59,567 nt of DNA from Planctomycetota bacterium (GTDB taxonomy: Bacteria > Planctomycetota > Brocadiia > SM23-32), in assembly GCA_021161675.1 (NCBI GenBank), contig JAGHAF010000107.1, positions 1-59,567 on the forward strand. The letters run 5' to 3'. Each line of letters begins with the position of its first letter. Within the stretch, counting starts at the first letter, position 1. Shown piece after piece: positions 19,360 to 59,415 of the stretch. Both the position numbers and the translations under genes were made by a program. The notes under the pieces are model-generated. The model was not told the origin of the DNA. It saw only the letters and a program-made list of their open reading frames with translations, and made no database searches.

Positions 19360-19431
19360 CAAAGCGGCTTGCTCCCGGAGAAGCGCAGCGTGGGGCCTGG
19401 GCTTCCCCCAAAAGGCCAAGGGAGGGAGAAG

Positions 19432-20970
19432 ATGGCTCTGCCGCAGGAAACGCGCTGGGCGCGGCTCTCGGTCGCTCGCAAACTTCTCACTCGCGAGCAG
19501 CTCGACGCATGTTACCAGTTCCAGGCCGAGAAGCAGGAAAAAGGCTCCAAGCTACCTCTCTGGGACTGCGCGGTCTTGCAGCGCCTGCTCAACCAGAACG
19601 AGGCAGAGCAACTCCAAGACGAAGCGGGCGACGTTAACGCCGAGAAGCTGGGGGATTTCAGCCTCGTGCGCAAGTTGGGCAAGGGCGGAATGGGGGCTGT
19701 GTATCTCGGCGTCGGGCCGGATAAGCAACGCGCAGCCATCAAAGTGCTCGAGCAGCAACTGGCCAAGCAACGCAGTTTCCTGACCCGCTTCTTCCGCGAG
19801 GGAGAGGCCTCTATGAAGCTGGAGCACGAGAATATCGTGCGTGGGCTCGACATCGGTGAGGACGGGGGATACTACTTCTTCGCCATGGAGTACGTCGAGG
19901 GCAAGAGTGTCGCACAGCTCATCAACCAGGTGGGCTCCATAGCCTGGGAGCAAGGCACCCGGATCGTTCTGAAGGTGGCCGAAGCGCTTGCCTATGCGCA
20001 CGCCAACGGCCTGATCCACCGTGATATCAAACCGGAGAACATCATGGTGGCGCCTGGTGGCGTGGTGAAACTGATGGACCTTGGACTGGCCCGCCAGATG
20101 GACCTGGAAGTGACCAGGCTGACCCAGACCGGCACCGCCATGGGCACACCGTACTACATGGCGCCGGAACAGATTAAGGACGCCAAACGCGCCGACGAGC
20201 GCAGCGACATATATTCCCTCGGGGCTACCTGGTACCACATAGTCACCGGACAGGTGCCTTTCACGGGTGACACCTCTTACGAGGTGTTCCAGAAACACAT
20301 GAAAGAGATCGTCCGATCACCCCAGGCCGTGCGCGCCGACGTGCCCCGGGCGGTCTCAATAGTTATCGAGCGTATGCTCTCCAAGGAACCCGCCCGCCGG
20401 ATGCAAAGCGCCGAGGAATTGTGCGAGATCATCCGGTCCAAGTGCCTCGGCCCGCGCGACCTGCGCAAGGAATTGCAACTGGACGAAGTCCACGCGGACA
20501 AGCCAGAGTGGGAAGTGAAAATCATGGTGGCGGGCAACGAGGAGCGCAGGCGGCTCTCTCGCGCCGAGGTGCCCAAGCGCGTCAGGGCAAAAACGCTGAC
20601 CCGGGAGACGCCGACGCGGCGAATTGGGGATCACGGGCCATATCGGCCTGCACGGATGTTCCCGGACCTGGAGCGCCTTCTTCCATCCGATCGGCCTACG
20701 GTTGCGGCAGGACCTGCGCCCACCGGACCCCAGGTTCGCCGGACTAAGACGCGCCCGCCGGCAGGAAGCCAAAAACCCGGCGGCAGCATGCTCCACACCA
20801 TGATCCAGGACTACGACAAGGAAGAAAAGGCCTACCGCAAGAAGAAACGGATGGAGAAGTTGGCGCCCCTCCTTATCAAGTGCGCCATCCTGGCGGCCCT
20901 GGTTTTTCTCGCCCTCTGGTTCTGGCCGAAGATTTGGGGATTTCTTTCGGGGCTGATAGGCCCGTCCTGA
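19432..20970 (+). CDS. Ser/Thr protein kinase (Hanks type) with a C-terminal TM anchor
   Basis: LGKGGMGAVYLG, AAIKVL, HRDIKPENIMV, DLGLA, YYMAPE. C-terminal TM: LLIKCAILAALVFLALWFW. The ATG at 19432 is preceded by GGGAGGGAG; the track ORF starts at 19369. Confidence 0.87.
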   Translation: MALPQETRWARLSVARKLLTREQLDACYQFQAEKQEKGSKLPLWDCAVLQRLLNQNEAEQLQDEAGDVNAEKLGDFSLVRKLGKGGMGAVYLGVGPDKQRAAIKVLEQQLAKQRSFLTRFFREGEASMKLEHENIVRGLDIGEDGGYYFFAMEYVEGKSVAQLINQVGSIAWEQGTRIVLKVAEALAYAHANGLIHRDIKPENIMVAPGGVVKLMDLGLARQMDLEVTRLTQTGTAMGTPYYMAPEQIKDAKRADERSDIYSLGATWYHIVTGQVPFTGDTSYEVFQKHMKEIVRSPQAVRADVPRAVSIVIERMLSKEPARRMQSAEELCEIIRSKCLGPRDLRKELQLDEVHADKPEWEVKIMVAGNEERRRLSRAEVPKRVRAKTLTRETPTRRIGDHGPYRPARMFPDLERLLPSDRPTVAAGPAPTGPQVRRTKTRPPAGSQKPGGSMLHTMIQDYDKEEKAYRKKKRMEKLAPLLIKCAILAALVFLALWFWPKIWGFLSGLIGPS

Positions 20971-31480: not shown

Positions 31481-35514
<4,034 letters not shown>

Positions 35515-40066: not shown

Positions 40067-41395
40067 TTAGATAGCGCTCGCTTCCACGACCATGAAACTC
40101 ATCTCTGCTTCACACGCCAGCTCTCCGTCCACAGAACCTCTAGCTCTGACATGGGCGGACCTGGACCGCACCCGCATGGCCTCAACCTCCAGGATAAGCT
40201 GGTCACCCGGCTCCACAGGGCGGCGAAGCTTGACGTTTTTCATGCCCACCAGCAGGCAGACTTTGCCGGTGTGCTCCAGCTTGCGCAGCAACAGAAGCCC
40301 TGCCGTCTGCGCCATGGCCTCAAGCTGCAGAACGCCAGGCAGTATGGGGTAGTCCGGGTAGTGGCCCTGGAAGTAGGGTTCGTTGATGGAGCAGTTCTTC
40401 ACCGCCACGATCCTGCTCTCACCTTCGATGCGCAACACCCGATCCACCATCAGGAATGGGTAGCGATGCGGCAGCACACGGCGGATTTCCTGCACGTCCA
40501 GGTATTCCTCGCGGCCCACCCCTTCTTCCAGCAGTTGATGGAGTCGCCTGGTGAGGGCGGTGTTCAGTTCGTGTCCACTGCGGATCGCCATAATCCTGGC
40601 CTGCAGGTCCACCTTGAGCAGCGCGAGGTCGCCCAGCAGGTCCACCACTTTGTGGCGCACCGCCTCGTCGGGAAACCTGAGCGTGGCCGGCTCCCCGCTG
40701 AGCGGGCGTTTTATGGCGCCGTCCCTGCACAACAGGAATGCGTTCTCGTCGGTGACGCCGCCGCCGATGGAGAGCTTCTGGAACTGCTCGTAGTCATCCT
40801 CCAGGCCGAAGGTACGCGCCGGCGCCAGTTCCGCCATGTAGATTTCCGGGTCCAGGCGCATAGTGAAGACTTCCGTCGGGTGGTAGCCTTCGTCAAAGTC
40901 CAGCACGTAGCTGATTGTGAACTCGTCTTCCTGGGGCAGCGCGACAATGGTCGCCTCACCCCGTGGGATAGAGATAGTCTCTTGGAGCTGGAGCGTGGGC
41001 CGCTCAGCGCTTTGCTCTTCTATCCCCGCTTCCTGGAGCGCCTCGGCGAACTGGAGTGGACAGCCGCCCATTGCGGGCAGCTCAGAAGCGTCCAGCTCGA
41101 TCATCAGGTTATCCACCCGCAGCCCGGCGCAGGCGCTGAGCAGGTGCTCGACCGCGTTGACCTCCACGTCGTTCCAACTCAGGGCCGTGCAGCGGTAGCC
41201 CTCGCTGAGCGCCTCCACGCCGGTGGGCACGACCGGACTGTCCGGCAGATCGATCCGCCGGAACATGTAGCCGGTGTCCGCCTCTGCGGGAAGCAGGTTG
41301 ACCGTCACTTCCTTCCCGGAGAACAATGCGCTGCCGTGCAGCTCGACCGGCTTGGAGATGGTGGTTTGCTGACGCGCCATTTCACTTCGCTTCAA
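40067..41395 (-). CDS. lpxC/fabZ: Bifunctional UDP-3-O-acyl-GlcNAc deacetylase / 3-hydroxyacyl-ACP dehydratase (LpxC-FabZ fusion)
   Basis: The N-terminal LpxC part carries QTTISKPVELHGSALFSGKEVTVNL..VEHLLSA. The C-terminal FabZ hotdog part carries LPHRYPFLMVDRV..FQGHYP..PILPGVL. Confidence 0.92.
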   Translation of the reverse strand: MKRSEMARQQTTISKPVELHGSALFSGKEVTVNLLPAEADTGYMFRRIDLPDSPVVPTGVEALSEGYRCTALSWNDVEVNAVEHLLSACAGLRVDNLMIELDASELPAMGGCPLQFAEALQEAGIEEQSAERPTLQLQETISIPRGEATIVALPQEDEFTISYVLDFDEGYHPTEVFTMRLDPEIYMAELAPARTFGLEDDYEQFQKLSIGGGVTDENAFLLCRDGAIKRPLSGEPATLRFPDEAVRHKVVDLLGDLALLKVDLQARIMAIRSGHELNTALTRRLHQLLEEGVGREEYLDVQEIRRVLPHRYPFLMVDRVLRIEGESRIVAVKNCSINEPYFQGHYPDYPILPGVLQLEAMAQTAGLLLLRKLEHTGKVCLLVGMKNVKLRRPVEPGDQLILEVEAMRVRSRSAHVRARGSVDGELACEAEMSFMVVEASAI

Positions 41396-49073: not shown

Positions 49074-49180
49074 CGTTCGCTCGGCGCGCGATGGCGCCCC
49101 AAAGCCGCCTGCCTCCCCGCCTGTGGTGTGCAACGGCCGCGGCGTTCTTCGACACTGACTGTCCCTTCATCCGCCACACT

Positions 49181-50413
49181 TCATCGTTTTACCTTTCCCT
49201 TGATCCATTCCTTGATGCGCGTAGGCATGGAGGGCGCCACCTCGACGGCGTCGTGGGGACAGACCTCCGCGCAGCAGTAGCAACTGATGCAGCGAGCGCG
49301 ATTCACGTGATAGGTCCGGCTTTCTTCGTCGAAGAAGATGGCCTTGCTGGGACAGTTACGCTCGCACTCGCCGCATTGGCGGCAGATATCCTGATTGATC
49401 CTTGCATACGTTGTATTGAACGCGCTTATGAAGCGGCGGACCAGCCATCGTGGCACAAGGTCAGCGGCGAGCGTGGCTGCGTAAGTCGGCGGCCTGGCGA
49501 AGTTCGTCGGAGCGAACGCCGCTGCCGGCTCGCCGACGACCTGTATCTCCTCCGGCGCCGCGACGCCCAATCCCCTTTGCGCGCAGCGCGCCAGCAGGGG
49601 CACTTGCAGCGGGGCGAAGCCCATCACCTGCGCGCAGAAACTGTCCACCGCCACCGGGTCGGCCCCCGCCGCCACGAGCCCAACCCTCCGCAGCGCCCCG
49701 TTGGAGGGCCCTCGCCCTTCCATCCCCACTACGCCGTCTATAACCGCCACGCTGCGCGGCAGTGCGGCGTAGAGGTCACACAGCGCCGTGGCGAACTCGT
49801 CGGGGCGGGGGGCCAGCAAATGGAGGTTCTTCTTCGCTGCGCCCGGCACGAGCCCCAGCAGGTTCTTCACCGCGCCGGTCATGTAGGTCAAAAGGTGCGT
49901 CTTCAGCTTGGCGACGGAGACGATCAGGTCGAACCTGTCCAGGTTCGCCGGCAGGGGGATGTCCTTGAAGATCACGGACCCCTCCGAGCGCAAGGTCCGG
50001 CGCGGCTGCTGGTCCACGTTGTAGACCTCGGCCCCGATCTCGCCGGCGACCGCTTCCATGCCGGAACGCTCCAGCGCACGCGCCGTGGAGCCGTGGCCAA
50101 GCGAGCCACAGGAGTCTCCGATGGCGATCCGACAGCCGAAATCCGCGATCAATATCTCCCCCAGCGCGCGGACCACGCCCGGATGTGTATTGACGTGGGC
50201 CTCCGGCCCCTGCCAGCTGGAAAGCACATTCGGCTTCAGCAGAACGCGCTCCGCTTCGGCGAATACGCGCTGGAGGTCGGGCAGCGCCCCGATGCACTGC
50301 TGGACGGCCGCCCGCAGGTTAGATTGATTGTAAGTGACGCACCGGGCTGCGCTTATCAACGCGCCGCCGCCCGGAAGCGACCTCCCGGAACGAGTGACAC
50401 TATCTGCCGACAT
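49181..50413 (-). CDS. DUF362-type protein with a C-terminal 2x[4Fe-4S] ferredoxin domain
   Basis: VLLKPNVLSS..HPGVVRALGE..KLKTHLLT..VIDGVVGMEGRGP (DUF362-like), then CRQCGECERNCP and CISCYCCAEVCP. The start is uncertain. ATG 50413 was chosen because the longer track ORF (to 50662) overlaps atpC. Confidence 0.7.
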   Translation of the reverse strand: MSADSVTRSGRSLPGGGALISAARCVTYNQSNLRAAVQQCIGALPDLQRVFAEAERVLLKPNVLSSWQGPEAHVNTHPGVVRALGEILIADFGCRIAIGDSCGSLGHGSTARALERSGMEAVAGEIGAEVYNVDQQPRRTLRSEGSVIFKDIPLPANLDRFDLIVSVAKLKTHLLTYMTGAVKNLLGLVPGAAKKNLHLLAPRPDEFATALCDLYAALPRSVAVIDGVVGMEGRGPSNGALRRVGLVAAGADPVAVDSFCAQVMGFAPLQVPLLARCAQRGLGVAAPEEIQVVGEPAAAFAPTNFARPPTYAATLAADLVPRWLVRRFISAFNTTYARINQDICRQCGECERNCPSKAIFFDEESRTYHVNRARCISCYCCAEVCPHDAVEVAPSMPTRIKEWIKGKVKR

Positions 50414-50522
50414 TATTCCTGCCCTGGGGTAACCGCAAAAGAGCATTCTACCCGGCGGGGGCGACGCGCGCATCCGAAAGCGCATCGCAGTCGCCGCGCC
50501 GTAGAGGCACTGAGGGACTGGA

Positions 50523-50918
50523 TCATTCCACGCCGGCCACTCGAAGCCGGTTGGCGGCGCGGGCCAGCGCTGCGAGGGCGCGGGCCTCGTCAATCTCTTC
50601 CGCCCGGCGCCGGAGGCGTTCCTGCGCGCGCTTTCGGGCCTGCCGCGCCCTTTCCACATCAATCTCGGAGACCTTCTCCGCCGTGTCCACCAGCACTGTC
50701 ACGCGGTTCTGAAACACCTCCGCGAAGCCCCCCGTTGTGGCAATGTCGAGCGATTCGCCGGACAGGTCCACGCTGATACGCCCCATCGCCAGACTGGACA
50801 CCATGGAGACGTGACGCGGGAGGATGCCCAACTGCCCGCCCTCGCCCGGCAAGAGCACGTGTTGGACGTCTTGCGCATCGAGCACCGTCCGTTCTGGCGT
50901 GATGACTTTGATTCTCAT
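50523..50918 (-). CDS. atpC: F1 ATP synthase subunit epsilon
   Basis: MRIKVITPERTVLDAQDVQHVLLPGEGGQLGILPRHVSMVSSL.. with a C-terminal helical hairpin. ATG at 50918, 10 nt after the atpD stop. Confidence 0.9.
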   Translation of the reverse strand: MRIKVITPERTVLDAQDVQHVLLPGEGGQLGILPRHVSMVSSLAMGRISVDLSGESLDIATTGGFAEVFQNRVTVLVDTAEKVSEIDVERARQARKRAQERLRRRAEEIDEARALAALARAANRLRVAGVE

Positions 50919-50928
50919 GGTCGCTTTC

Positions 50929-53290
<2,362 letters not shown>

Positions 53291-53301
53291 CTTTCTCCTA
53301 C

Positions 53302-53421
53302 GGGAAAGGATGAAGGATGAAGGCGGAAGGAAATGCAGAAGACAAAAGGGTGAAGGATGAAGCTTGCGCGCAGAGCTTTGCCGTTGTCTTTGCCGTTAAT
53401 TTCATCCTTTATCCTTCTACC
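53302..53421. repeat. Full palindromic copy of the dispersed repeat family at the atpA|atpG junction
   Basis: gggaaaggatgaaggatgaaggcggaaggaaatgcagaagacaaaagggtgaaggatgaag / ctttgccgttgtctttgccgttaatttcatcctttatccttctaccc. It overlaps the last 4 codons of atpA. Confidence 0.75.
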
Positions 53422-55082
53422 CTGGCGCCATCGGCGCCCGCGGTGGCGACGAAAGATTTCCTGAACTCTTCGATCGCTTCCTCAAGCTTCTGTTGCGTTT
53501 CTTCGTCCAGTCTTCTGGTCTCGGCAATTCGGACGGGGATGCCGGGCCTTTCGCTTCGGATAAAGGCCAGGAATTCCTCGCCGAACCGTTGCACTTCCTC
53601 GACAGGGATGTCCCGCAGATGCTCCTGGACGCCGAGGTAGATGATGAGGACCTGGTATTCGACGGGCATTGGGACGTACTGGTCCTGCTTGAGCAGTTCG
53701 GTGAGCCTCTCGCCGCGGGCGAGCTGTCGCTGAGTGGCCTCGTCCAGTTCGGTGCCGAACTCGGCGAACGCCGCCATCTCGCGGTATTGGGCAAGCGAGA
53801 GCTTCAGTTCCCCCGCCACGCTTTTCATGGCGGGTATCTGCGCCGCGCTGCCGACGCGCGAGACGCTGGTCCCCACGTTCATGGCGGGCCGTATCATCTT
53901 GTGGAACAGGTCGGCCTCCAGGAATATCTGCCCGTCGGTGATCGAGATCAGGTTCGTGGGAATGTAGGTTGAGATGTCTCCGGCCTTGGTTTCCACAATG
54001 GGAAGGGCGGTGAGGGAGCCGCCGTCGGCGATTTCCCGGCCGCTGATGTCCTCCCCGCAGTGGGCGCACACCTTCGCCGCTTTGAGCTCTTCGAGGTTCT
54101 CCTCGGTGGGGGGCAGGGGCGTGAGCAGCCCGCAGGAGGGGCATATCTTCCCGTCGCTGGATTTCATCGCCCTTTCCAGCAGCCGGCTGTGCAGGTAGAA
54201 GATGTCCCCCGGATATGCCTCCCGGCCGGGCGGGCGCCGCAGGAGGAGCGATATCTGGCGGTAGGCCTCGGCGTGCTTGGAGAGGTCGTCGAAGGCGACC
54301 AGCGCGTGCCCGCCGCGCTCCATGAACTCCTCGCCGATGGCGCAGCCGGCGTACGGCGCCAGATACCACTGGGGCGCCGGCGCCGTCGCAGTGGCGGCGA
54401 CCACGACGGTCTTGTTCATCACGCCCTCGCGCTCGAAAGTCTCAACGATGCGGGCGATGGAGGCGTTCTTCTGCCCGATCGCCACGTAGATGCAGACGAC
54501 GTCGCTCGCGCGCTGGTTCAGGATGGCGTCCACGACGAGGGCGCTCTTACCGGTCTGGCGGTCGCCGATGATCAGCTCGCGTTGTCCCCGCCCGATGGGC
54601 GTCAGCGCGTCCACGATCTTATAGCCCGTGTGGAAGGGCTCCTTGACTGGTTGTCTCTTGACGATGCCTGGCGCTACGCGTTCGACCGGACGGTATCTTT
54701 CCGTCTCGATCGGGCCCCGGCCGTCCAGGGGCCTCCCGACGGCGTCTATGACCCGTCCCAACAGGGCATCGCCGACGGGGATGCTGGCGATCCGGCCGGT
54801 GCGTTCGACCTGGTCCCCCTCTTTGATCAGCTCGTCCTTGCCCAGCAGGACGCAGCCCAGGTTATCCTCCTCCAGGTTCATCGCGATGCCGATAACGTCG
54901 TGGGGGAACTTGAGCAGCTCCATTGCCTGGCACTGGCGGATGCCGTAGACGCGGGCGATGCCGTCCCCGACTTCGAGGACGGTTCCCACCGCGGCGAAGC
55001 CACCCGCTTGCGTTTCCGCCTGCAGCGCCCGCCGAATGATGGAACTGACTTCTTCCGGCCTCATAGATGTCTCATCCGCCAT
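53409..55082 (-). CDS. atpA: F1 ATP synthase subunit alpha, with a Cys4 insertion
   Basis: Walker A GDRQTGKS; [10 protein letters not shown] ... [34 protein letters not shown]. 557 aa, versus about 500-515 aa as I recall for typical bacterial alpha subunits. The extra sequence is [18 protein letters not shown] between LLERA and GSLTALP. Confidence 0.95.
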
Positions 55083-55617
55083 ATGCCATTCTCTCCCTTG
55101 CTTGCTTCAGGCGTCCACGCAGGCTCCCGTCGTAGAACAGGTCGCCCATCCGCACCTGGAAGCCCGCGATCAGTGACTCACTCACTTGCTCGTCCAGGCG
55201 GACGTGCTGACCGGTGATTGATTCCAGTTTCTTCACGATGCCCATTCGCTGCTCCTCGCTCAGCGGCGCCGCGCTGGTTACGCGCGCCTCGACTATGCCC
55301 AGGCGGCGATCAACCTCCTCCGCGAAGCCGTCCGCCACGTGCGCCAGGATGGACATCCGTTTCTTGTGGATCAGCAAGTCGAGCAGGCGGGCGCTCAGGT
55401 CCGAAAGTCCCAGCTCCGCGCTTATCCCGCGCAGCAGGGCCTGCTTCTCGGCCCTGCTCTTGCGGCCGGCCACGGCGAAAGTGCGCAGCTCGGCGCTGTC
55501 CTCGAATGCCCGCGCCAGGGTCCGCAGCTCGCCGCGCACCCGCCGCAGCGCGCCGCTTTCCTCGGCGAGGTCCGCCAGCGCTTCGGCGTATCTACGGCTG
55601 ATTATCGTCGCTCTCAC
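55072..55617 (-). CDS. atpH: F1 ATP synthase subunit delta (OSCP)
   Basis: A 181-aa helical protein: [14 protein letters not shown].., C-terminal ..[21 protein letters not shown]. It sits between atpF and atpA and overlaps both. Confidence 0.85.
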
Positions 55618-56384
55618 TGCTGCGCCTCGGGTCCTTTGTCGCCCTCGAGGGACATCTGTTCAATGCTCTCCCGGACGAGCCTTTCGTGGTCATCCTCGGT
55701 CAGTTCGCGCCTCAGCAGCTTTTCGGCCACCAGTGTGCTCAGGTCGGCGACCTCTTCGCGCAGGCTTGTCCTGGCGCGGCGCAGCTCCTCCCGGAGTCGC
55801 TCTTGCGCGTCCCGTCTTAGGCGGTCCGCCTCGCGCCGCGCCCTCTCCACGATCTGTTCGCCCTGCTGGTCGGCCCGTTCCTGTGCTTTCTCGATGATTC
55901 CCGCGCGCTCCGAATGTATCTGCCCGAGTTCCCGGCGCCTCTGCTCGACCAGGTCTGCGGCCCGCCCTTCCCGGCGTTCGGCCTCGTCAAGTTGCTCTCT
56001 GACGCTGCGGCGTCTCTCGTCCAGGAAGGCGAGCAGCGGATCCCACAGAAACCCGTACATGACCATGAGGAGAATGGCGAAGTTCAGACACTGAAGGATG
56101 AGCGTATAGTTGACGTTGATGATCTGGCCCTTTGCGGCGAGGAGGCTCTTGAGCACGCTGGCCGCCTCTTTCTGGGTGACGGGGTCCGCACGGATGTGCT
56201 TCGGGTCTTCGGCGTAGGCCTGCTGACGCACCTCGTTCAGTTTTTGCTGAAGGACCCCTGTCACGCGCTCCGGGTATTGCGGCCGCGAGTCAGCGACGAA
56301 ATCTGTGATCATCACGGCGACCGTGACCGCGTAGAGGACCCCAATGATCACCAGGCCCTTCCTGGCGCCGGGCTTTATGTGCAC
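55614..56384 (-). CDS. atpF: FO ATP synthase subunit b with an N-terminal extension
   Basis: The canonical b part begins at about residue 93: NVNYTLILQCLNFAILLMVMYGFLWDPLLAFLDERRRSVREQLDEAER.., followed by a long charged helix. Residues 1-92 add another TM helix (GLVIIGVLYAVTVAVMITDFV). Confidence 0.8.
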   Translation of the reverse strand: MHIKPGARKGLVIIGVLYAVTVAVMITDFVADSRPQYPERVTGVLQQKLNEVRQQAYAEDPKHIRADPVTQKEAASVLKSLLAAKGQIINVNYTLILQCLNFAILLMVMYGFLWDPLLAFLDERRRSVREQLDEAERREGRAADLVEQRRRELGQIHSERAGIIEKAQERADQQGEQIVERARREADRLRRDAQERLREELRRARTSLREEVADLSTLVAEKLLRRELTEDDHERLVRESIEQMSLEGDKGPEAQQ

Positions 56385-56430
56385 GGGACATTCTCCCCTA
56401 TAATTGTCGGGCGTTGCGATCGGAAGGTTT

Positions 56431-56700
<270 letters not shown>

Positions 56701-56716
56701 TTATCGGCTGATTCTA

Positions 56717-57484
56717 TCAAATGAAAAAAATCAGGATGAATGCGATCACAAAGGCGTAAATGCACGTGGACTGGCTCACCGCCCCGCCCACGAGCATCAC
56801 GCGCATCAGTTGGTTGTTAGCTTCTGGCCTTCTGGCCGTTCCCTCACAGGCGCCTCCCGCCGCGACGCCGGCGCCGAACCCAGGCCCTATGGCGCCCGCG
56901 CCGATGCAAAGGCCAGCTGACATGGCGCTGACGGCCGCAACTGGATCATTGCCGACGTATTTTTGAAACTGCTGTGCGAAAGCGAGGACTACCGCTATCA
57001 CCAGCGCGAACACCGCGGGGCTGCTCGCCAGGCCCTGCCCGAGCAACATCATGATGGTCACGTGTCCACGCGTGCGCGGATTGCGGCCGATCCCTGCGGC
57101 GGCGCGGGCGCCCGCCACACCGGCCCCAACGCCGGAACCGACGGCGCCAAGGCCCATGGCCAGTCCGGCGCCCAGAAAGGCGCCCATTGCCTCGGCGCAT
57201 GGCACGGGCGTCAGAAAGATCAGCACGAAGGCCATCACCAGCGCAAAAATGCCGCTCGTCTCCGCTACGGCCTGCCCCACCAGCATGACCCTTGTCAGGT
57301 CTCCGGCGGCGGAAGGCTGCCGCGAGATGGCGTCCACCGTGGCGGCGGCATTATAGCCCTCGCCAACCCCGGCGCCAATCGCCCCGAGCCCCATGGCCAG
57401 ACCGGCCCCCAGGTACTGGGTCATCCGCATAAAAGGCGCCCAGTCAATGTTCTGCGCCGCGACGCTAAGCCAATCTCCACTCAA
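56717..57484 (-). CDS. Triplicated (three-hairpin, 6-TM) c-subunit proteolipid of the F-type ATP synthase
   Basis: A 255-aa ORF with a TTG start 6 nt after GAGGAG. It has three tandem c-like units. Helix-1 motifs: GLGAIGAGVGEG, GLGAVGSGVGAG, GAGAIGPGFGAG. Loops: SRQP, GRNP, ARRP. Helix-2 motifs: GQAVAETSGIF, GQGLASSPAVF, GGAVSQSTCIY. Only unit 1 has the carboxylates (E42, E75). Confidence 0.85.
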   Translation of the reverse strand: MSGDWLSVAAQNIDWAPFMRMTQYLGAGLAMGLGAIGAGVGEGYNAAATVDAISRQPSAAGDLTRVMLVGQAVAETSGIFALVMAFVLIFLTPVPCAEAMGAFLGAGLAMGLGAVGSGVGAGVAGARAAAGIGRNPRTRGHVTIMMLLGQGLASSPAVFALVIAVVLAFAQQFQKYVGNDPVAAVSAMSAGLCIGAGAIGPGFGAGVAAGGACEGTARRPEANNQLMRVMLVGGAVSQSTCIYAFVIAFILIFFI

Positions 57485-57557
57485 CGTGCACTCCTCTATG
57501 CGGTTACAAAGAAGCCTTTTACGCTTCCGCCCAGTAAAACGACAGATGAAGCGCGAC

Positions 57558-57650
57558 GGGGAAAGGTAGAAGGACGAAGGGAGAAGGTTGAATCATGAAT
57601 GGCGCCGAGACGCTCTCGTTAGCTTTTCCTTCATCCTTTTGCCTTATCTT
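57558..57650. repeat. Full palindromic copy of the dispersed repeat family at the atpB|c junction
   Basis: ggggaaaggtagaaggacgaagggagaaggttgaatcatgaatggcgcc / gctctcgttagcttttccttcatccttttgccttatctt. It abuts the atpB stop codon. Confidence 0.7.
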
Positions 57651-58562
57651 TCATTCCCGTATCTGCACCGCCGTGTAGGCCAGCGCCAGCATGGCGAACA
57701 CAAACGCCTGCACCAATCCAATGAAGAATCCGAAAAACGGTATCAGAATCAGCGGGATCCCAATGTAGAGAATCAGGTGTGACACAACCGTCAGGATCAC
57801 AAACCCGCCGAAGATATTCCCGAACAACCGGAACGGGTGGGAAATGCTCTTGCCCAGCTCCCCCACCACGTTTAGCGGCGCCATCACCACGTTGGGCACC
57901 CTCCCGCGCTGCAAGGCGAACAGGAGGACCATCACGGATAGGGCTGCCAGCAGCCCCGCCGCCAGGCCGCCGCCCACCTTCCGGGCGACGCTCGCCTGCG
58001 CGAAGGAGCGCGCGTAGCCCGAAATAAGCAAGTAATTCAGCCATGCGCCGAGTACCAGGAAAACCACGCCGACACCTTTGGTTATCGGCCGGTCCCCCGG
58101 GAAGCTGGGCTCAAAGAAGCTCCACAGCCACTCCCGAAAGCCCTTGACCCGGATGGCCGATATGTGAACCACAAAGAACACGATCAGCGCCAGCCCCAGG
58201 GGGGTGTTCAGGTCCTGCGTGGGGCAATAAAACCCCGGCCAGCCAAGCGCCGCCAGAACATTCGGTATCGTGCCGATAACGTTGGAGAACAGGACGAAAA
58301 GGAAAAGCGTGATGATGAACGGCAGGTATTTGCGGCCGTGCTCCTTGCCCAGTGTGCTGTCACAGAGGTCCTCGAAGAACTCAGTCACCATCTCGAAGAT
58401 AACCTGCAGACGCCCGGGCGCGCGCTCCAGGCGCCGCGCCACCAGCAGGGCCAGCGTTATCAGGATAGCCATCACCAACCACGAGTTGTACAACGTGGCG
58501 ACGTTGAACCCCTCGAAGGGCAATCCCCATATCTGAACCGGCGCGTTCGGTATTATGTCCAT
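57651..58562 (-). CDS. atpB: FO ATP synthase subunit a, with an internal insertion
   Basis: 303 aa. The conserved Arg motif is SHPFRLFGNIFGG, and PTQDLNTPLGLALIVFF is also present. About 65 extra residues with two hydrophobic segments lie between FFEPSFPG and APLNVVGELGK. Confidence 0.9.
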   Translation of the reverse strand: MDIIPNAPVQIWGLPFEGFNVATLYNSWLVMAILITLALLVARRLERAPGRLQVIFEMVTEFFEDLCDSTLGKEHGRKYLPFIITLFLFVLFSNVIGTIPNVLAALGWPGFYCPTQDLNTPLGLALIVFFVVHISAIRVKGFREWLWSFFEPSFPGDRPITKGVGVVFLVLGAWLNYLLISGYARSFAQASVARKVGGGLAAGLLAALSVMVLLFALQRGRVPNVVMAPLNVVGELGKSISHPFRLFGNIFGGFVILTVVSHLILYIGIPLILIPFFGFFIGLVQAFVFAMLALAYTAVQIRE

Positions 58563-58700
58563 CTTACCTCACCCATCCTTTTTCTTCCTTCTGTCGTTCG
58601 CCCCCTGCCGCCTCTCTCCTTTCTGTCTCCTGTCTGCTCCCTGCCTCCTGTCGCCATCCTGCCTCCTGCCACCTGCCTCCTGCCTCCTGATTCCTGGCTG
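58563..58700. repeat. Pyrimidine-rich (purine-rich in mRNA sense) low-complexity repeat tract at the atpI|atpB junction
   Basis: ccatcctttttcttccttctgtcgttcg.. then reiterated ctgcctcctg units (ctccctgcctcctgtcgccatcctgcctcctgccacctgcctcctgcctcctg). It is in frame with the atpI 3' end. Confidence 0.65.
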
Positions 58701-59061
58701 TCAGCTCCGTCGCAACGATAGCGACGTTCATCACGAGCAATCCCCCGGCCGTCGTCCAGGGGGAAAACAGCCCGCTCAGCCCGAAAGCAAGCCCCAGGGC
58801 CGCCCCGCTCAACAAGTAGCCCGCAAGGCGCAGACGGACGAGCCGGGCAGCGTCAGGCCGGCCCCGCATCGCCCTGTACCGCAGGGAGAACCGCAGAATG
58901 CTCACGATGGCGCCCAGCAGCAACCCGAGGGCGGCCGCCCTGCCCCATAGCAGGTAGAGAGCCACGGCGCCGCACAGGGAAATGACCTGCGCAAGCCTCA
59001 ACGCCCGCTGCCAGAAACCCGACACTTCATCCTGCTGCGTTGCAGGCGACATAGCGCTCAC
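58564..59061 (-). CDS. atpI: ATP synthase protein I (AtpI-like) with a repeat-derived C-terminal tail
   Basis: Hydrophobic 4-helix-like core (VISLCGAVALYLLWG, LGLLLGAIVSIL, LAGYLLSGAALGLAF, GGLLVMNVAIVA), located upstream of atpB. ATGA overlap with atpZ. The tail QEAGGRWQEAGWRQEAGSRQE.. is encoded by the repeat. Confidence 0.6.
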   Translation of the reverse strand: MSAMSPATQQDEVSGFWQRALRLAQVISLCGAVALYLLWGRAAALGLLLGAIVSILRFSLRYRAMRGRPDAARLVRLRLAGYLLSGAALGLAFGLSGLFSPWTTAGGLLVMNVAIVATELTARNQEAGGRWQEAGWRQEAGSRQETERREAAGGERQKEEKGWVR

Positions 59062-59324
59062 TCGCGTTCTGATTCCGCACTGTGTTCGTTGTCACTATCG
59101 GCCTGCGGCTGGACGGCCTTCATCACCATGCGGTAAACCGCAAGCATCCCCCCGCCGATTCCCGCGGCGGTCAGGGCAATGGTGAAAAGCGGCTCCGTGC
59201 CCAGCCATCTATCCAGGTAGAAGCCCGCCAGCAATCCGCCCGCTACGGCGCCGACCATGATAAGGCCGAGTTGCCCCACCATGGTCAGGATGACCAGAAC
59301 GTCTTCCCTGCCCTCGGACGGCAT
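59058..59324 (-). CDS. atpZ: AtpZ/AtpR-like small membrane protein (ATPase_gene1 family)
   Basis: Two TM helices: LVILTMVGQLGLIMVGAVAGGLLAGFYLDRWLGTEPLFTIALTAAGIGGGMLAVYRMV. The ATG at 59324 lies 4 nt after GGGAGGA. The longer track ORF (to 59396) would include the promoter -10 box. Confidence 0.7.
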   Translation of the reverse strand: MPSEGREDVLVILTMVGQLGLIMVGAVAGGLLAGFYLDRWLGTEPLFTIALTAAGIGGGMLAVYRMVMKAVQPQADSDNEHSAESERE

Positions 59325-59386
59325 AAAATCCTCCCAGGCCGGCAAACGCGGCGGGCACGACAGGCCGCACGGCCTACAGAAATGGT

Positions 59387-59415
59387 ATTCTGACACACCA
59401 GCCCCAACTTGTCAA
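59387..59415 (-). promoter_or_regulatory. Sigma-70-type promoter of the atp operon
   Basis: On the minus strand: TTGACA (59410-59415), 17-nt spacer, CAGAAT (59387-59392), about 60 nt upstream of the atpZ ATG. Confidence 0.5.

Follow-up and report, generated by a model that had tools for sequence, protein, structure and literature searches.

A net insertion of 40 residues containing four cysteines interrupts the F1 ATP synthase alpha subunit encoded in a 59,567-nucleotide stretch of DNA from a Planctomycetota bacterium (assembly GCA_021161675.1, contig JAGHAF010000107.1; GTDB lineage Brocadiia, SM23-32), which is referred to below as the window. The explanation that we favour, with some reserve, is that the insertion folds by itself into a small metal-binding Cys4 module of the zinc-ribbon or rubredoxin-like kind, most probably holding one structural Zn2+, on the outside of the alpha subunit.

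The gene, atpA, occupies positions 53409-55082 on the minus strand (all coordinates below refer to this strand unless another one is given), and its product of 557 amino acids is a genuine F1 alpha subunit. The open reading frame (ORF) has the three-domain architecture of AtpA, with PF02874 (ATP-synt_ab_N), PF00006 (ATP-synt_ab) and PF00306 (ATP-synt_ab_C) all recognised above their gathering thresholds (E 1e-15 to 3e-75), and its best matches in the PDB are alpha chains with E-values of about 1e-200. The P-loop GDRQTGKS and the motifs of alpha subunits are present, and the gene is located between those for delta and gamma. In the alignments G173-K179 and R398, the latter of which aligns with the arginine finger of alpha, are invariant or nearly so. 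The remaining window carries ordinary housekeeping genes (GroEL, Tex, KdtA, EF-G, ProRS, LpxC-FabZ, BamA and DnaB), and this atpA locus is a normal chromosomal copy.

The segment to which the initial annotation of this DNA had drawn attention, amino acids 306-354 (54021-54167), translates exactly into the 49 residues quoted there. HMMER comparison with the alpha subunits of Bacillus PS3 and Caldalkalibacillus yields two blocks, query residues 6-312 and 353-544, which are contiguous in the targets, so that the net insertion relative to the Bacillus-type alpha is 40 residues long, corresponding to amino acids 313-352 (54027-54146) with a break at 312/353; the MAFFT gap block is 312-351. The exact translation and these two gap positions bear out the claim of a Cys4 insertion in F1 alpha. 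The insert lies between ...LLERA and GSLTALP and has its cysteines at positions 314, 317, 339 and 342 (C314-x2-C317-x21-C339-x2-C342), and the codons confirm the CxxC-21-CxxC pattern proposed earlier. It was also correctly held to account for most of the excess length of the protein, as it explains 40 of about 55 extra residues. About 12 more form a C-terminal tail past the canonical end (amino acids 545-557, 53409-53447), which is poorly conserved and is modelled with a predicted local distance difference test score (pLDDT) below 50; the longer alpha subunits of the same clade (up to 591 amino acids) suggest a tail of up to about 45 residues there.

Counted from LLERA to SLTALP, the linker comprises 50 residues in the window alpha, whereas the alpha subunits of Bacillus PS3 and Caldalkalibacillus thermarum (PDB 2qe7, 5hkk, 4xd7), which are 57-63% identical to it and share the same three domains, P-loop and motifs, have a linker of 10 residues without cysteine. 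Ten residues are likewise found in the alpha subunits of Carboxydothermus and Phycisphaerae, and 21 in that of E. coli (taken from an annotated genome), which agrees with the lengths given in the initial annotation (about 10 for the Bacillus type and about 20 for E. coli). The longest linker, of 57 residues, belongs to P0220, an AtpA of another uncultured lineage, in which a cysteine-free insertion of about 47 amino acids occupies exactly the same loop. The linkers of E. coli and P0220 share the insertion point with the window alpha, but their sequences are unrelated to it and contain no cysteine, and no metal site is expected in them. Judged from these alignments, the alpha loop between LLERA and SLTALP is an indel hotspot that is permissive for insertions, and the unrelated insertions in E. 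coli and P0220 fit a solvent-exposed loop.

A search with the full-length alpha sharply separates a clade of 33 protein clusters (68-82% identity; 553-591 amino acids, apart from two fragments) from the next-best alpha subunits, which are about 60% identical, about 502 amino acids long, come from several phyla including other Planctomycetota, and have the 10-residue linker. The 33 clade proteins were chosen by overall similarity and not by their cysteine content; the few named members are labelled Candidatus Brocadiia or Planctomycetota bacterium. The insert is exactly 40 residues long in all 33 of them and is absent from all eight aligned outgroups, other Planctomycetota included. Among 120 aligned alpha subunits, 86 have the short linker, 33 the Cys4 insert, and one an unrelated long insert.

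Nine columns of the 48-column module alignment are invariant, namely the four cysteines, G311, D345, G354, G355 and S356, and conservation is also strong around them. The first knuckle, C314-P-S-C317-G318 (54129-54143), has the consensus CPxCG, with both cysteines present in 33/33 proteins, P315 in 29/33 and G318 in 30/33; it is preceded by the strongly conserved K312. The turn that follows the first hairpin, T321-P-L-P-P325 (54108-54122), is retained at its successive positions in 32, 28, 29, 32 and 26 of the 33 proteins. Next comes a short acidic helix (amino acids 327-334, 54081-54104; consensus xENVEELE), in which E328 is kept in 28/33, E331 in 27/33 and L333 in 29/33; position 334 is Glu in 27/33 and Lys in the protein of the window. 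A336 and R/K337 lead to the second knuckle, C339-A-H-C342-G343 (54054-54068; consensus CxHCG), where the cysteines are again present in 33/33, H341 in 26/33 and G343 in 29/33, and which is followed by the invariant D345 and the strongly conserved I346 and S347.

Hand-made degenerate DNA patterns were used to search metagenome-assembled genomes (MAGs) and metagenome contigs. The first of them finds the insert in 12 MAGs that are GTDB species representatives, labelled Brocadiaceae, Brocadiia or Planctomycetota, with the cysteines kept in 12/12. Genomes named as described anammox genera gave no match to this strict pattern, and a match in Arachnia (L002) was rejected as a chance hit in an unrelated frame. 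A second pattern, in which no cysteine was specified, recovers five metagenome contigs, and all five encode the four cysteines. The conservation of the cysteines among orthologues, on which the initial annotation had made its proposal depend, is therefore complete in each of the three sets (33/33, 12/12 and 5/5). Since the Cys4 pattern is invariant in the two sets chosen without regard to cysteine (33/33 and 5/5), it cannot be ascribed to chance.

The ratio of nonsynonymous to synonymous substitution rates (dN/dS; Nei-Gojobori method, 13 coding sequences) is about 0.32 for the insert, or 0.34 when the Cys codons are left out, compared with 0.12 for the core of the nucleotide-binding domain and about 0.2 for the two terminal domains (N and C). 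Purifying selection thus acts on the insert, but more loosely than on the core.

An AlphaFold2 model of the alpha subunit, built with an alignment of 120 sequences, has a mean pLDDT of 81 and a predicted template modelling score of 0.84. Across the insert, successive ten-residue blocks have pLDDT values of 93, 75, 82 (331-340) and 91 (341-350). Secondary structure assigned to this model with DSSP places strands 311-313 and 320-322 on either side of C314 and C317, so that the first knuckle is situated in a hairpin turn; C339 and C342 are flanked by single-residue beta-bridges at 338 and 345. A short helix spans 330-336, and the strands of entry and exit are at 307-308 and 351-352. As modelled, with confidence, the insert is a two-knuckle ribbon with adjacent ends. 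When the 48-residue module is folded alone, the same elements of secondary structure are obtained, with a pLDDT of 75. The initial annotation had allowed that the segment could turn out to be a lineage-wide loop with no predicted metal geometry; the segment is indeed lineage-wide, but it is modelled confidently as a two-knuckle ribbon and not as a floppy loop, and the only folds that it resembles, weakly, are Cys4 metal folds.

That resemblance can be followed in several comparisons. In a Pfam scan of the 33 modules, the sub-threshold matches are almost all to zinc-ribbon and zinc-finger families, with Zn_ribbon_3 and DZR each matched by 32/33 and Zn_Ribbon_1 by 30/33. A profile of the module compared with the sequences of the PDB gives weak matches (E >= 0.03) to Nop10, the MCM zinc finger, the zinc extension of Thermus L24, L33 and the LID of adenylate kinase. 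The same proteins and families (Zn_ribbon_3, DZR, Zn_Ribbon_1; the N-terminal MCM zinc finger, Thermus L24, Nop10 and the LID of Gram-positive adenylate kinases) likewise have a pair of CxxC(G) knuckles that are about 20 residues apart, the first being located in the turn of a beta-hairpin. Such modules are found inserted into larger proteins or added to them as small extensions, and their metal then has a structural role; the LID of adenylate kinase in Gram-positive bacteria is a structural Cys4 metal site of this kind. In contrast to the known zinc ribbons, the TPLPP turn and the acidic helix between the knuckles are specific to the clade, and the matches remain below curated thresholds. Foldseek with the whole model recovers alpha subunits only (template modelling score, TM, about 0.94 when normalised to the target), with the insert as an unaligned extra.

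The 97-residue segment consisting of the insert and its flanks, compared with a set of 5.8 billion proteins, matches only short AtpA fragments at about 50% identity, which is consistent with matches of the conserved flanks alone and thus uninformative, and the protein search with the 49-residue insert alone gave no word-sharing candidate. The profile of the 48-residue module found only partial matches to unrelated CxxC-repeat proteins among 1.84 billion representative proteins and no free-standing homologue, which argues that there is no free-standing donor, although similar inserts in other AtpA lineages could escape this search; the clade proteins themselves were missed by it, presumably because they are clustered at 50% identity with representatives that have no insert.

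On the basis of these results, a structural explanation can be proposed. In the nucleotide-binding domain of alpha, the module takes the place of the short turn that connects the long helix after Walker B with the core beta-strand following it, and the metal would be gripped by its two beta-hairpin turns, CPxCG and CxHCG. The pairing of the entry and exit strands could allow a rigid motor subunit to carry an addition of 40 residues while its core is left undisturbed. In F1, the C-terminal ends of the strands of the RecA-like sheet come together at the nucleotide and, in the beta subunit, at the 'catch' loop of gamma. The turn that takes the insertion is therefore expected at the opposite, outward-facing end of the sheet, away from the nucleotide pocket; hence we infer that the module projects from the outer surface of alpha3beta3, as an external knob that would be present once per alpha and three times per enzyme. 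The module probably had a single origin in the ancestor of an uncultured clade of Planctomycetota (labelled Brocadiia or Brocadiaceae; samples from marine sediment and vents), and it has been kept together with a fused and a single c subunit, a longer b subunit and a gamma insertion, which are described below. Its likeliest role is structural, that of a stabilising decoration, and its conserved TPLPP turn and acidic helix could possibly also serve as a docking surface; we regard a part in catalysis or sensing as less likely.

Several points weigh against this explanation. None of the Pfam zinc-ribbon models reaches its gathering score with the module (the best, Zn_ribbon_3, scores 23 bits, with an E-value of 2e-5, where 27 bits are required), and Foldseek with the isolated module gives no significant match (best E 0.7), its non-significant top list consisting mostly of Cys4 folds (MCM, rubredoxins, rubrerythrin, ribosomal zinc ribbons and ChsH2). 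A missing significant match to a curated model or structure is usual for such short modules and is weak evidence either way. The external position follows from the known topology of the F1 fold and not from a model of the complex, and the identity of the metal cannot be read from the sequence. No partner protein for the module was identified in the operon. Furthermore, the insert changes at about 2.5 times the rate of the core, which argues against a tightly co-evolving interface.

The higher rate and the lack of a partner would also be expected if the insert were a tolerated, functionless expansion of a loop in an indel hotspot, with the cysteines kept only for the folding of the peptide or for no reason at all, and the unrelated insertions at the same loop in E. 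coli and P0220 are in line with this. We consider such neutrality unlikely, considering that the length is fixed at 40, that the four cysteines and some 15 further positions are conserved over 33 clusters of 68-82% identity, that dN/dS is well below 1, and that the insert is strictly co-retained with the rest of an unusual operon.

About equally improbable, in our estimate, is a regulatory switch, in which oxidation of the Cys4 site (with disulfide formation and release of the metal) or the availability of the metal would alter the conformation of alpha and tune the hydrolysis or synthesis of ATP. In function, such a switch would be comparable to that of the thiols in chloroplast gamma or to redox switches based on zinc thiolates. 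Zn(Cys)4 sites can serve as redox switches, the four invariant thiols occur in organisms from anoxic sediment and vent settings, and the same operon has features that look regulatory, such as a gamma insertion at the chloroplast and cyanobacterial site. However, by fold topology the loop should be far from the nucleotide site and from gamma, with no obvious path to rotation; the CPxCG/CxxCG signature of the knuckles is typical of structural sites, and no thioredoxin-like partner is encoded in the operon. The dithiol switch of chloroplast gamma is likewise formed by cysteines that one lineage has acquired through an insertion in an F1 subunit, but there it is a single disulfide-forming pair in gamma, beside the contact between rotor and stator, whereas here four cysteines are located in alpha, presumably far from gamma, and the gamma insertion of the window has no cysteine pair. 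A redox or metal switch is possible, with the thiols themselves as its only support.

A broader form of this idea, to which we give a similarly low probability, regards the Cys4 knob as a control or tethering element of a probably Na+-coupled F-type ATPase with a hybrid rotor, acting either as a zinc-thiolate redox or metal switch that gates ATP hydrolysis in Planctomycetota of anaerobic sediments or as a docking site that would hold another protein, be it a metabolic enzyme, an inhibitor or a hibernation factor, on the outside of F1. If it were true, it would represent a new mode of F1 regulation through a non-catalytic subunit.

An Fe(Cys)4 centre of the rubredoxin type, serving electron transfer on the ATP synthase, is very improbable. 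Rubredoxin has knuckles of the same form, CxxCG...CxxCG, and rubredoxins and rubrerythrin are among the non-significant Foldseek matches with a TM of about 0.5. Nevertheless, the modules, whose mean net charge is -4, contain on average 0.5 aromatic residues, while a conserved core of aromatics is characteristic of rubredoxins; the spacing between the cysteine pairs is 21 and not about 29; and rubredoxin does not figure in the list of the 25 Pfam families that were matched by the largest numbers of modules. To our knowledge, no role in electron transfer has been described for F1. The near-absence of aromatics, the spacing and a likeness confined to non-significant Foldseek matches led us to reject the insert as a rubredoxin proper.

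Finally, an assembly insertion, an intein or another mobile element has a negligible probability: two metagenome runs from hydrothermal vents and one from sediment contain near-identical sequence, and their independently assembled contigs cross 54021-54167 without indels or joints, contrary to the assembly insertion that the initial annotation had considered; the insert is in frame, has a GC (guanine plus cytosine) content of 0.68 against 0.65 for the gene, and is found in 33 protein clusters and 17 other loci, fixed clade-wide; its 40 amino acids could not accommodate an intein; the Pfam scan of the modules gave no significant match to families of inteins or transposases; and no free-standing homologue was found among the 1.84 billion representative proteins. 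The artefact and intein readings were rejected on the strength of the contigs of three runs, the clade-wide fixation and the failure of any splicing or transposition family to match significantly.

The structural explanation, a Cys4 metal-binding ribbon on the outside of alpha, can be compared with other additions to this subunit. Few known proteins are as highly conserved as the F1 alpha subunit, and additions that single clades have made to it have repeatedly proved regulatory. The tail of mycobacterial alpha, which hooks gamma, provides a rationale for a drug target, and euglenozoan p18, which is bound to the outside of alpha, is a second example of a regulatory addition. Both are clade-restricted like the insert described here, but the former is a C-terminal extension and the latter a separate pentatricopeptide repeat protein, and neither is a metal-binding insertion in the nucleotide-binding domain. 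These clade-specific elaborations, together with structural Cys4 insertions like the LID of adenylate kinase, are the closest analogues of the insert. Literature searches on zinc or cysteine insertions in alpha and on anammox ATPases returned no report of a strictly conserved metal-binding module on alpha, and the Cys4 insert therefore appears to be undescribed; searches for a published account of the place of this loop in F1 yielded nothing of use. The paper on Kuenenia reports two c ORFs in F-ATPase-1 and no alpha insertion.

Taken alone, the insert is of moderate interest, and it is more interesting as part of a distinctive operon, since it marks an F1Fo that differs from the textbook enzyme in a fused c subunit with one ion-binding carboxylate, a single c subunit with a Na+-type motif, a b subunit with two spans and an insertion in gamma. 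If the knob is functional, it would offer a new handle on how anaerobes that are limited in energy tune their rotary ATPases. As no more than a structural staple, it would still be a clean molecular synapomorphy for an uncultured Planctomycetota lineage and a natural example of a rigid motor tolerating the insertion of a domain.

The F1Fo operon (50523-59396), identified by Pfam families, is complete, with every gene on the minus strand in the order atpZ-like, atpI-like orfX, a, c3, c1, b, delta, alpha, gamma, beta and epsilon, and its synteny is kept in the related loci L003-L006 and L010-L012. The fused c subunit (c3, 56717-57484) consists of three hairpins, each recognised as an ATP-synt_C stretch, and is followed by a single-hairpin c subunit (c1, 56431-56676; ATP-synt_C), which is 85-91% identical in related loci. 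The initial annotation had asked whether the insert co-occurs with the triple c gene. Besides the window itself, both c genes and the order of the operon are kept together with the insert in all seven loci that reach far enough (L003, L004, L005, L006, L010, L011 and L012).

In c3, the Glu of helix 2 is present only in hairpin 1 (AVAETSGIF), while it is replaced by Ser in hairpin 2 (GLASSPAVF) and by Gln in hairpin 3 (AVSQSTCIY). In c1 the motifs are GVGEG and AVSESTGIY, a Na+-type motif with a second carboxylate, as in the c subunits of Ilyobacter and Fusobacterium. Together, the motifs of the two proteins suggest a hybrid rotor with a low ion-per-ATP ratio, which is possibly coupled to Na+.

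Other subunits of the operon are also extended. The b subunit (55614-56384, 256 amino acids) has an extra N-terminal hydrophobic span at amino acids 10-27 and about 65 residues ahead of the canonical membrane span at 93-115; this extension is conserved in related loci, where tblastn matches begin at amino acid 3. In the gamma subunit (52367-53290), the region of amino acids 193-222 contains about 22 more residues than the gamma of Caldalkalibacillus and has no regulatory cysteine pair; it is the place at which the regulatory insertion of cyanobacteria and chloroplasts is found.

The operon is bordered by several smaller features. Two small membrane ORFs precede atpB (58564-59061 and 59058-59396), of which the upstream one matches PF09527 (ATPase_gene1, AtpZ-like); the second has no Pfam match, is 45-60% identical in related loci and is probably AtpI-like. 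Immediately downstream of atpC, a gene at 49181-50662 combines DUF362 with two [4Fe-4S] ferredoxin domains, and the longer ORF that overlaps it on the opposite strand (49091-50776, plus strand) is probably spurious. The ORF just downstream of the operon putatively encodes ribosomal protein L25. Farther away, the window encodes an LpxC-FabZ fusion (40067-41395) and two Ser/Thr protein kinases on the plus strand (19369-20970 and 34258-35514), both of which are ordinary features for this phylum.

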